Source: Mycoplasma mobile 163K
GTDB taxonomy: Bacteria; Bacillota_I; Bacilli_A; Mycoplasmatales; Metamycoplasmataceae
Assembly (NCBI RefSeq): GCF_000008365.1
Contig: NC_006908.1
Span: 390,001 to 422,000, forward strand
Direction of reading: 5' to 3'
DNA: 32,000 nt
Positions 27,670 through 30,600 of the stretch are shown here, piece after piece (position 1 is the first letter of the stretch; each line of letters begins with the position of its first letter). Under the pieces are notes generated by a model. It was not told the DNA's origin. It did not search any database and saw only the letters and a program-made list of their open reading frames with translations. Made by a program: the position numbers and the translations under genes.

Positions 27670-30600
27670 TTAAGCATTACTAACTTTACCTTCTCATCTA
27701 AGTGGATGACCATTTTCAGGGGCTCTTACTGCATCTAAATAAACATATACTCTTCAGTCTTGTGTATTTGTAGTTGTGTCTACACCAAAATGGCGTCATC
27801 TCACAGCATTGAATGCACTTGCTGACACTGCATATCTTAATCCTTTATTATGTAATTCATCATTAAATCGAGGGAATCCATTTTCAAAGATCGGTGCTCC
27901 ACTATTATCTTTTGCTCAAACATCACCAAGACTAAATTTTACACCTCTAAATGGATTTAATAAAGCAGTGAAAGTAGAATTTGCAGGAGTACCAGCAGCA
28001 GGAGTGGTAAGAATTAAATTACCAACTTTTTCGATTGTGAAAAATCTATTTAATAAATCTTGAGAAATTGGTTTAAATCCTTCAATTCTTCTTGAATAAG
28101 TTACTGCTTCATTATTGAAAGTTCCATTGACAATTAAAGTATGACCATTTGTTGTCGTATCAAAAGTACTATTTTGTAATTGATAACTTGTAATAGCAAA
28201 TTGATTATTATCGATTCCTAAATTTTCTTCTTTCAATATAAGACCGATTTCTGTCAATTTATTTTTCATATCAGTTAATGTTGTAATACTTGTAACTAAG
28301 TTGGTTCTTGAAGGAATAAAGAAAGTTGTATCTACTTCTGCATTTCTTAGTCCTAATATTGCTGCTAAAGCATCTTTAGGTGTTAAAAAACCTGATATAG
28401 TAATTATTTCTGAAATTCTTTCAGTTCCTTCAAAAGTACCTTTTACTTTAAAACTTAAAGTACCATCTGTATTATTTCTACTTAAATCAATAACTTCTAA
28501 ATTAACACCTCGTTTATCAAAACTTTGAATAAATTTAATATCAGCATTAGAAATTGATGAAGATAATTTTGTTGCTTTATTTTCAATTTCAAAAATTTCA
28601 GATGTAATTGAATCAATTGTTTTTTGTAATAAAGTTTGTTGTATTTTTTGAGTAGTAAAAAAAGGTGTGTCAATTAAATAATCAGTTGATCCGGCAAATG
28701 CTAATGTTTGATCAAAGTGGAATCATATAGTAATACTTTGTTCTCCATTTTCAACAGCAGAAGTTCTTCAGGCAAAACGATTAGCATGAAGTCTTAAATT
28801 TCTATTATGAAGTCCTTCAATAAATGAAGGTATTCATGTTGCTTCACCTGTAGAAGCAAACTCTTCTTTTCCGCTTGCAGTATTAAAGAATTTTTTTCAA
28901 TCTGATGATTCTTTAGCTACAATTCCTCTATCTGGTAGATGATTTTGTTCAAATAATTGCCCTGTGTGGAGATTACCTTGAGATGCTGTTAATAATGGTT
29001 TTTCATTACGTGTAAAAGTTATTAGAGTATCTAAGATTGTACCAATTGCAGTATATCCTTTTAATTCTTTTGTAAAATTTACTAATTTTCCATCAAAAGT
29101 TCCGTTAATTGTAATTTTCATATCTTTTGAATCTTTTGTAAATGTAGTACCATTATTTAAATCTGTAATTCGATAATTTGTAAGTGTGAATCTATTAGCA
29201 TCAACATCTCCAAAACCTATATTTTTATTCATAATACCAATTTGATTTATGAAAGTTCTCATTGTGGTGATATTACTTTGTGATTGAACATTTGTAACTG
29301 AAGGGGTAAAGAAAGTAGTATTTACTTCTGAATTAGATAATCCAAGTCAATCTCCAAAAGCCATGTTTGCTGTTTTGAAATTATTTACATTTAATATTTT
29401 AGTATTTAAATTTTGACCTTCAAAAGAAGCAATAACTCTTACATTTAAAGTTCCAATAGTATCATTAGATGAATCTATTTCTAATTTAAAATTAACACCA
29501 TTAATTGAATTTATACTTACATATTTATTAATAAGTTCATTTGTCATTGAAGATGCTAAAGCTGTAATAATTTCATTTTCATTATTGATATTTAAATTTT
29601 GTTGAGTGATTTGATTATAAGCATTTTGTAATGTAATTAAATCTTTTTCCCTTTTTTCTTGTGTTGTTAAAAAGCCTGACATAGTAATAAATTTATCAGT
29701 TGTTTCACCTAAAGTTGCAACAACTTTAAAAGTAATTTGGCCTAATTCATCATTACGATTAGTAATTTCTAAACTTAAAGCAACTAATTCTCTTGTTGAA
29801 TTAGTAATACTAATAATGGTACTATTTATATCTTTTGGCAAAATTTCATTTTTATTATTAATTCCTAAAATAATATCATTTTCAGTAATTTCATTTAAAA
29901 TTCTTTCTCTACGTTTTGCATTTGTTTCAAAATTAGAAATCTCTATTTTAATTGAAGATTTTTCAATTCCTTTAAAAGTACCTTTTACTTTAAAACTTAA
30001 AGTACCATTAGCATTATTTGGGATTATTTCTAAAATTTCTAAATCAACACCCTTATTATCAAAATTTTTAATAAATTTAATGTCAGAAGCAGCAATTTCT
30101 GAAGGCAATTTATTTTGTTTTTCGATTTCAAAAATTTCTGCCTTAATTGCATTAATAATTTCATTTAAATGATCTTGATTTGTTTGAAATTTTGTGATAG
30201 TAATTTCTTTTTCTTTTGAAATTCCTGAAATAGAAGCTTTTAAAGTTACTTTTAATTCTCCTTTTGTATCATCATCACTATTTGCTTTAAAAATAAGTTC
30301 AAAACTTACCCCATTAGATATTGTTGGATTAGAAATAAAGTTTTTTAAAGTTTCAGCAGTTATTGTTGAAGGTAAAGTAGTTGCAAAAGCACTTAAATTA
30401 GCTTCGATAGTAGTAATTTTTGCTAATTCTTGATCTAATCTTTGATCAATTGTTTGAAATTTTGTGATAGTAATTTCTTTTTCTTTTGAAATTCCTGAAA
30501 TAGAAGCTTTTAAAGTTACTTTTAATTCTCCTTTTGTATCATCATCACTATTTGTTTTAAAAATAAGTTCAAAACTTACCCCATTAGATGTTGTTGGGTT

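Follow-up and report, generated by a model that had tools for sequence, protein, structure and literature searches.

A species-restricted head region of Mycoplasma mobile Mvsp surface proteins, partly derived from the stalk

Introduction

The surface of Mycoplasma mobile is dominated by the Mvsp proteins (MvspA to MvspP), among which MvspI is the standard reference in work on gliding motility. MvspI (MMOB3340) was characterized by Adan-Kubo et al. in 2012, who reportedly found it to be a rod of 66 nm that sometimes bulges at its C-terminal end. Fifteen Mvsps carry the Lipoprotein_17 domain (PF04200), which consists of a helix followed by three strands, and MvspI, with a molecular weight of 220 kDa, has 16 copies of it (Gli123 preprint, 10.1101/2022.09.07.507039). 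MvspI-null mutants are viable and show up-regulated MvspF (10.1101/2022.09.07.507039), and an anti-MvspI antibody leaves gliding unaffected (PMC5883615); cells in culture can therefore do without MvspI, and gliding does not require it. Adhesion of M. mobile has been attributed to Gli349, and the Mvsps were judged unlikely to take part in gliding on the basis of the antibody result and the low abundance of MvspB (PMC5883615). The quarter of the Mvsps that does not consist of repeats has no annotation. In this study, we characterized a module of this non-repeat part, hereafter B, in a 32,000-nucleotide stretch of the M. mobile 163K genome (positions 390001 to 422000; hereafter the window), where B occurs twice in MvspI and once in MvspC. 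Coordinates are window positions (27670 in the window is genome position 417670), and the features described lie on the minus strand unless stated otherwise. The Mvsps of the window were named from gene order and the published domain tables.

Results

Module B in MvspI and MvspC

The giant gene at the end of the window stops at 27670, which is genome position 417670 and the published end of mvspI (MMOB3340; 417670-423678, minus strand; Table S4 of 10.1101/2022.09.07.507039). The giant gene is therefore mvspI, with residues 561 to 2002 inside the window and the 560 N-terminal residues outside it. The original prediction had placed copies of B at 28651-29364 and 27670-28380 in this gene and at 10037-10747 in a second gene (10037-11668), whose product is identical to AAT27809 (MvspC); all three intervals fall on exact codon boundaries. 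The terminal module of MvspI (B3) covers 27673-28380, with the stop codon at 27670-27672, and corresponds to residues 1767 to 2002. The internal module (B2) covers 28651-29364, corresponds to residues 1439 to 1676, and has an aberrant insertion ahead of its IP motif. The head of MvspC (B1) covers 10040-10747, with the stop codon at 10037-10039, and corresponds to residues 308 to 543 of AAT27809. The near-identical sizes claimed for the copies (236, 236, and 238 amino acids) were reproduced, and all of the motif blocks listed for them are present in the alignment.

The copies are truly similar to one another, as had been proposed from the sequence: blastp gave 36% identity between B1 and B3 (E 2e-32), 32% between B1 and B2 (E 4e-25), and 28% between B2 and B3 (E 3e-19). 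A decayed copy, predicted near 25284-25990, was located at 25394-26080 by tblastn and at 25418-25813 and 25817-26002 by a profile hidden Markov model (HMM), and it is 49% identical to B2 (E 1e-52, blastp). The HMM of B scored from 359 bits (B2) to 371 bits (B3) on intact copies and found no further matches in the window. MvspK and MvspL, encoded a short distance beyond the window, each have a further intact copy, giving five intact copies and one decayed copy in total.

The published Pfam map of the family (Table S3 of 10.1101/2022.09.07.507039) ends MvspI with domains at 1353-1436 and 1687-1766, and the gaps that it leaves, 1437-1686 and 1767-2002, are B2 and B3. The same map leaves unannotated tails of 239 amino acids in MvspC, 265 in MvspK, and 246 in MvspL. 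B had been described as standing twice in tandem in the giant gene; there are indeed two copies, but one stalk repeat lies between them (repeat 16 of MvspI, 28387-28626, residues 1685 to 1764; repeat HMM E 4e-14). This repeat is the published domain 1687-1766 and is 51% identical to the MvspI repeat at positions 608-691 of the open reading frame (ORF). B matched no Pfam or NCBIfam family, and searches of PDB sequences with the B alignments and with a two-repeat stalk segment gave nothing significant; these results agree with the proposal that B is a real, conserved C-terminal module without a described domain. Neither B nor its tip matched a known adhesive domain in Pfam, NCBIfam, or PDB, and no enzyme family was matched in these databases at E values up to 10.

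Composite anatomy of B

Each copy consists of a stalk-like N-terminal sub-domain followed by a variable stretch and a tip that bears tryptophan. The sub-domain lies at approximately 28069-28380 in B3, approximately 29044-29364 in B2, and 10439-10747 in B1, and the remainder at 27673-28068, 28651-29043, and 10040-10438, respectively. B opens with a junction motif, GL.N..V.T.FF.PS.TN. When the first ~110 columns of the five-copy B alignment were compared by hhalign with an alignment of the 39 stalk repeats of ~80 to 90 amino acids delimited in the window, positions 12-103 of B aligned collinearly with positions 6-84 of the repeat (score 22.9, E 9e-4). One hundred column shuffles of the alignment scored 10.6 on average (standard deviation 2.0, maximum 16.6), and the reversed alignment scored 12.5. 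In an AlphaFold2 (AF2) model of full-length B1, residues 30-39 form a helix and residues 55-64, 77-85, and 88-96 form strands, with a predicted local distance difference test score (pLDDT) of 58 to 77 in these elements; within this low-confidence model, the order of secondary structure is the one described for Lipoprotein_17. From these data, we conclude that the first ~100 amino acids of B are a degenerate stalk-type repeat that is not filed as a PF04200 member.

A predicted short helix follows the sub-domain and leads into a hypervariable stretch of ~40 amino acids (alignment columns 121-160, column identity 0.14 to 0.19). Confidence in the AF2 model is also lowest in this stretch, which is probably loop-like. 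The β-rich tip of ~90 amino acids holds nearly all of the tryptophan of B and has the core W..D..G...(N/D)G(I/F)P....L..(R/K)(G/N)L(R/K)(Y/L)...W...FD, after which further strands are predicted. Each copy contains no cysteine and two to five tryptophans, and Asn, Thr, and Ser together make up 26 to 31% of B. Invariant positions of the alignment are occupied by G, L, F, P, S, N, I, Y, T, W, and D, and none by His, Cys, Glu, or Lys. In addition, the last ~80 amino acids of B aligned weakly but collinearly with the stalk (score 12.6, reached by 4 of 150 shuffles), and the low-confidence AF2 model of B1 places a helix at 173-176 and strands at 188-197, 200-212, and 225-234 in this tail, again a helix and three strands. 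We regard this resemblance of the tail to the stalk only as a hint.

The type A heads of MvspB, MvspD, MvspE, and MvspF (8040-8735, 15944-16660, 18072-18806, and 20927-21661) had been considered unrelated to B. Significant similarity between the two is indeed lacking (hhalign probability 0.4%), but only their tips of ~130 amino acids are unrelated, and both heads have a stalk-like start: columns 38-112 of the A alignment matched positions 7-82 of the stalk repeat with a score of 20.8 (shuffles, mean 10.7, maximum 16.0). Both head types thus appear to begin with a degenerate Lipoprotein_17 repeat. Remote homology of the A and B tips was rejected, the score being reached by 3 of 60 shuffles. Two of the A genes, mvspE (18072-20654) and mvspF (20927-23482), are very similar tandem paralogues with head-adjacent repeats that are 92% identical.

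Head subtypes and the MvspC chimera

A tree of the six B copies has two clades, one of B2, the MvspK head, and the pseudogene copy, and the other of B1, the MvspL head, and B3, each with 100% bootstrap support. A recent tandem duplication inside MvspI as the origin of B2 and B3 was rejected, because the two heads sit in different clades; the double head therefore combines two subtypes. In every pair of B copies, identity was higher in the N-terminal sub-domain (35 to 75%) than in the tip (22 to 41%). For example, B2 and the MvspK head, its nearest relative, are 51% identical overall, with 75% in the sub-domain and 29% in the tip.

A tree of 47 stalk repeats showed that the repeats adjacent to the heads group by head type. 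Identity is 52 to 92% among the repeats next to A heads and 62 to 70% among those beside B2, the MvspK head, and the pseudogene copy. This clustering indicates that the inherited unit is the last repeat together with the head, and the A and B genes are two lineages that pass on this unit as a block. The two lineages also differ in their N-termini. MvspH, MvspK, and MvspL have a lipobox, VAC(A/G)T, whereas the N-termini of MvspB, MvspC, MvspD, MvspE, and MvspF (9900-9941, 11640-11668, 17850-17881, 20590-20639, and 23440-23470, respectively) are hydrophobic and without cysteine, so that these "variable surface lipoproteins" would not be lipid-modified at a lipobox.

MvspC departs from this pattern. 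Its signal peptide and three stalk repeats are encoded by 10748-11668; the signal is hydrophobic, lacks cysteine, and is 60% identical to that of MvspB, and repeats 1 and 2 are 49% identical to MvspD (E 2e-48) versus 26% to MvspK and MvspL. Repeat 3 and head B1 are closest to MvspL (43%, E 3e-55). The recombination junction lies near 10993, with A-lineage-like sequence upstream and B-lineage-like sequence downstream. By these similarities, MvspC is a chimera in which an A-type signal and repeats 1 and 2 are joined to a B-type repeat 3 and head, and it is the sole demonstrable case. The idea of heads swapped on a common stalk, for which a phylogeny of B modules and stalk repeats had been suggested as a means of detecting domain shuffling, thus holds for MvspC, whereas in the other genes head-adjacent repeats cluster by head type and the last repeat and head are inherited as a block.

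Distribution of B

We searched 1.84 billion representative proteins exhaustively by HMMER with a profile of the N-terminal 153 positions of B built from three query rows. Six matches were obtained: MvspC, MvspK, MvspL, two ORFs of the decayed copy, and one spurious repetitive protein, so that MvspK and MvspL were the only full-length matches besides MvspC among these representatives. MvspI was absent from the matches despite supplying two of the three query rows, and may be clustered under another representative or not be in the library. Scans with B patterns gave 87 pattern matches in GTDB genomes and 332 in JGI metagenomes, none of which was confirmed. The B HMM matched none of the 13,319 six-frame ORFs (translation table 4) from 80 loci carrying the neighboring pyruvate kinase gene; the nearest of these loci has 63% identity, many are AT-rich mycoplasma loci, and M. 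mobile itself is absent from the set. Word-index protein searches with B1, the three-copy alignment, and the five-copy tip alignment were empty; these searches do not retrieve the Mvsps of M. mobile either, and the result is informative for other organisms only. In the Logan index, MvspK has no record, and a 3.2-kb contig with MvspL encodes a product identical to that of 163K and adds no strain diversity. As far as these data reach, B is thus restricted to one species. The accessible literature makes no mention of the B subtypes, the composite make-up, or the chimeric nature of MvspC.

The decayed copy and mvspH

The decayed copy (25394-26080) contains in-frame stops and frameshifts, and its N-terminal sub-domain is 74% identical to that of the MvspK head, its nearest relative, and 64% to that of B2. 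It is preceded by a frameshifted stalk repeat at 26089-26301, a homologue of the MvspI repeat adjacent to B2 (64% identity by tblastn, 70% in the repeat alignment), and by mvspH (26313-27302), which encodes the lipobox VACGT and three stalk repeats (domains 37-128, 134-218, and 229-318 in the published map). Beyond the stop codon of mvspH, the repeat carries on the homology to MvspI in a second frame, and the B copy with its stops follows in a third. The decayed copy is therefore the 3' part of a B-type pseudogene, the open 5' part of which is the truncated mvspH. Pieces of the decayed copy have been deposited in public protein collections as small proteins of 79 and 54 amino acids (P0004 and P0005).

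Genetic code, stalks, and other features of the window

The window has a GC content of 24%. ORFs of at least 150 amino acids total 7,910 amino acids, rising to 14,204 with translation table 4 (TGA read as tryptophan), and the giant gene, which is in pieces under table 11, becomes a single ORF (27673-31998) running off the window. The near-doubling of coverage and the joining of the giant-gene fragments show that the window must be read with table 4. TGA is the sole tryptophan codon used in the mvsp genes of the window, where tryptophan is nearly confined to the head regions; the 220-kDa size of the MvspI product shows that translation passes through these codons and yields the double-headed protein.

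The stalk repeats are PF04200 domains, with E values of 1e-38 for MvspC and 9e-64 for MvspB. The stalk of MvspI at 29374-31998 has ten Lipoprotein_17 repeats in the window, and the last of them, 29374-29628, goes with B2. Near-identical tandem repeats at the DNA level were found in mvspB (8997-9801; 276 bp, 2.9 copies, 97%) and in mvspI (30180-31012; 270 bp, three copies, 94%) and indicate recent repeat expansion or gene conversion.

In gene order, the mvsp genes comprise mvspB (8040-9941) with an A head, mvspC (10037-11668) with a B head, mvspD, mvspE, and mvspF with A heads, mvspH, and mvspI, which extends from 27670 beyond the window end and has two B modules. An ORF of at least 842 amino acids at 2-2536 is probably mvspA; its Lipoprotein_17 matches are weak (E 5e-10, two stretches), its repeat organization differs, and no head of either type, A or B, is present in the part inside the window. 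The gene between mvspC and mvspD (11767-13300) encodes a 512-amino acid AAA_21/AAA_15 ATPase that is OLD/AbiEii-like (Pfam E 9e-15) and may be of a defense type. Long plus-strand ORFs antisense to the mvsp genes (18736-20616, 21591-23471, 29621-31999, and others, up to 793 amino acids under table 4) were rejected as genes and are a compositional artifact. A stop in the antisense frame requires an NNT|TAY (Tyr) junction in the sense strand, of which mvspI has 6, compared with 99 and 165 for the other two phases; these ORFs stay open because Mvsp stalks are poor in tyrosine.

Discussion

B is a genuine head region, restricted to one species and hitherto without annotation, in a surface-protein family that is already known, and it is partly derived from the stalk. 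We think it probable that B is the membrane-distal, composite region of one Mvsp lineage, made of a stalk-like part, a variable stretch, and a species-restricted tip, and that it presents a non-enzymatic, exposed antigen or contact surface. A lipid or a signal anchor would hold the N-terminus of the Mvsps in place, and the chain of Lipoprotein_17 repeats would project outward and end in B. As the far, exposed end of a fibrillar surface antigen, B would have no enzymatic role and may act as a variable antigen, a host-contact surface, or both. A non-enzymatic, exposed tip is suggested by the architecture of anchor, stalk, and distal head, by the absence of catalytic-type invariant residues, and by the tip evolving faster; that MvspI-null mutants are viable and that the antibody leaves gliding unaffected also speak for this role. 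We infer the antigen or contact function from sequence. Several points weigh against this reading as a whole. PF04200 itself scored at best 10.8 bits on the N-terminal sub-domain (B3, E 0.66), below the cutoff of 22.4, and the five sub-domains scanned singly with Pfam gave no match. The AF2 models are weak (pLDDT 48 for a 153-amino acid fragment and 56 for full-length B1), and although the high ranks of the PF04200 structures 2KRT and 3K63 in Foldseek searches against PDB (19th and 22nd of 350,542 chains) favor a stalk-like sub-domain, the E values of 0.7 to 0.8 are non-significant, and with such low-confidence models the ranks are only suggestive. The apparently faster evolution of the tip than of the rest of B is judged from paralogues of one strain. 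Moreover, the primary Mvsp papers may already describe B; in the accessible literature and databases, only the repeats are annotated.

Other explanations of B differ mainly in how they treat the stalk-like segment and the tip. B could be a self-contained globular adhesin or lectin head with a new fold that binds a ligand on fish gill epithelium, its likeness to the stalk being convergent or trivial. A stalk with a distal head is typical of fibrillar adhesins, among which PF04200 counts as a stalk domain (10.1101/2021.12.07.471604), aromatic motifs are kept in B (FF.PS and two invariant tryptophans), and B matches no known domain. However, the stalk profile signal is collinear over nearly the whole repeat and exceeds all 100 shuffles, conservation is lowest in the tip, whereas a ligand pocket under retention would not usually vary most, and adhesion has been attributed to Gli349 and the Mvsps judged unlikely to take part in gliding (PMC5883615, as above); we consider such a head unlikely. 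Slightly less likely still, in our view, is that the whole of B consists of two heavily degenerated stalk repeats and a variable linker, a structural end-cap that merely terminates the fiber. The stalk-like N-terminal part, the weak collinear match of the last ~80 amino acids, the helix and three strands modeled there, and the cryptic stalk-like segment in the A head would all fit an end-cap, but the tail signal (p ~0.03) comes from a single alignment and the model is of low confidence, and the invariant Trp, Pro, and Asp and a conserved 40-amino acid core that stalk repeats lack point to a distinct constraint.

In some mycoplasma surface proteins, Lipoprotein_17 repeats occur together with peptidase-like domains, and B might accordingly be enzymatic, for instance a hydrolase or protease domain displayed on a stalk at the cell surface. 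This is very improbable given the failure to match any enzyme family even at permissive E values, and given that invariance among polar residues is limited to S, T, N, and D, in structural-looking motifs. Finally, the richness of B in Asn, Thr, and Ser and the AT-rich DNA raised the question of whether the similarity among the copies is a chance or compositional effect. We give this explanation the least credence of all: it is refuted by blastp E values of 1e-19 to 1e-55 with composition-based statistics and by the HMM scores of the intact copies, and none of the ORFs from the 80 pyruvate kinase loci matched.

A more novel reading is that the tip of ~130 amino acids including the hypervariable stretch is a new fold that arose from stalk repeats within the M. 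mobile lineage and serves as a diversifying host-contact or immune-decoy surface, with heads recombining, as in MvspC, between lipid-anchored and signal-anchored stalks. We put this forward tentatively, as a possibility with well below even prospects. MvspI, the most studied Mvsp of M. mobile, carries two head subtypes in series, and if the preferred reading is true, these two heads might explain at the sequence level why electron microscopy reportedly shows a bulge at the C-terminal end. Defining B splits the family into two lineages by anchor and head and sets MvspC apart as a recombinant. Antibody mapping, binding assays, and a Pfam entry would most naturally be directed at the tip, as the fastest-evolving and most exposed part of B. 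The scope is narrow, one species and one sequenced strain, and within it B may illustrate how the head of a fiber arises from degenerate stalk repeats.

Among known systems, the closest is the Mvsp family itself (MvspA to MvspP): the genes are the same, and the N-terminal anchor, Lipoprotein_17 repeats, and surface location are as published, whereas the published domain table shows nothing for B and no family model covers it. The PF04200 domain (structures 3K63 and 2KRT, from Ureaplasma parvum), in the form of the M. mobile repeat profile, shares with the N-terminal sub-domain the PS motif, a helix followed by three strands (predicted in B), and a closing G(F/Y); by contrast, B stays below the Pfam threshold (at most 10.8 versus 22.4 bits), inserts ~12 amino acids between the PS motif and strand 1, has the FF.PS.TN junction motif, and continues for ~130 amino acids without a counterpart. 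The Vlp proteins of M. hyorhinis, Vsa of M. pulmonis, and Vsp of M. bovis resemble the Mvsps as clustered multigene, repeat-rich surface (lipo)proteins with size-variable arrays, but the Mvsp repeats are folded domains of 80 to 90 amino acids and not short peptide repeats. The window also lacks the marks of slipped-strand or invertase-driven phase variation: the 300 nucleotides upstream of each of the seven mvsp starts contain no homopolymer or dinucleotide tract (run of 8 or more), runs of 11 or more are absent from the entire window, and its ORFs do not include a recombinase. The type A head of MvspB, MvspD, MvspE, and MvspF occupies the same position as B, with 232 to 245 amino acids, a cryptic stalk-like segment, and non-repeat sequence bearing tryptophan; it differs from B in that the tips are not significantly similar, the A genes have no lipobox, and the head-adjacent repeats form a separate clade. 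Finally, the Mvsps share with the fibrillar adhesins of Monzon and Bateman (10.1101/2021.12.07.471604) an anchor, a repeat stalk for which PF04200 is listed as a stalk domain, and a distal non-repeat head. Unlike in those adhesins, the head matches no known adhesive domain, the anchor of the Mvsps is N-terminal and the head C-terminal, and MvspI carries two heads in series.

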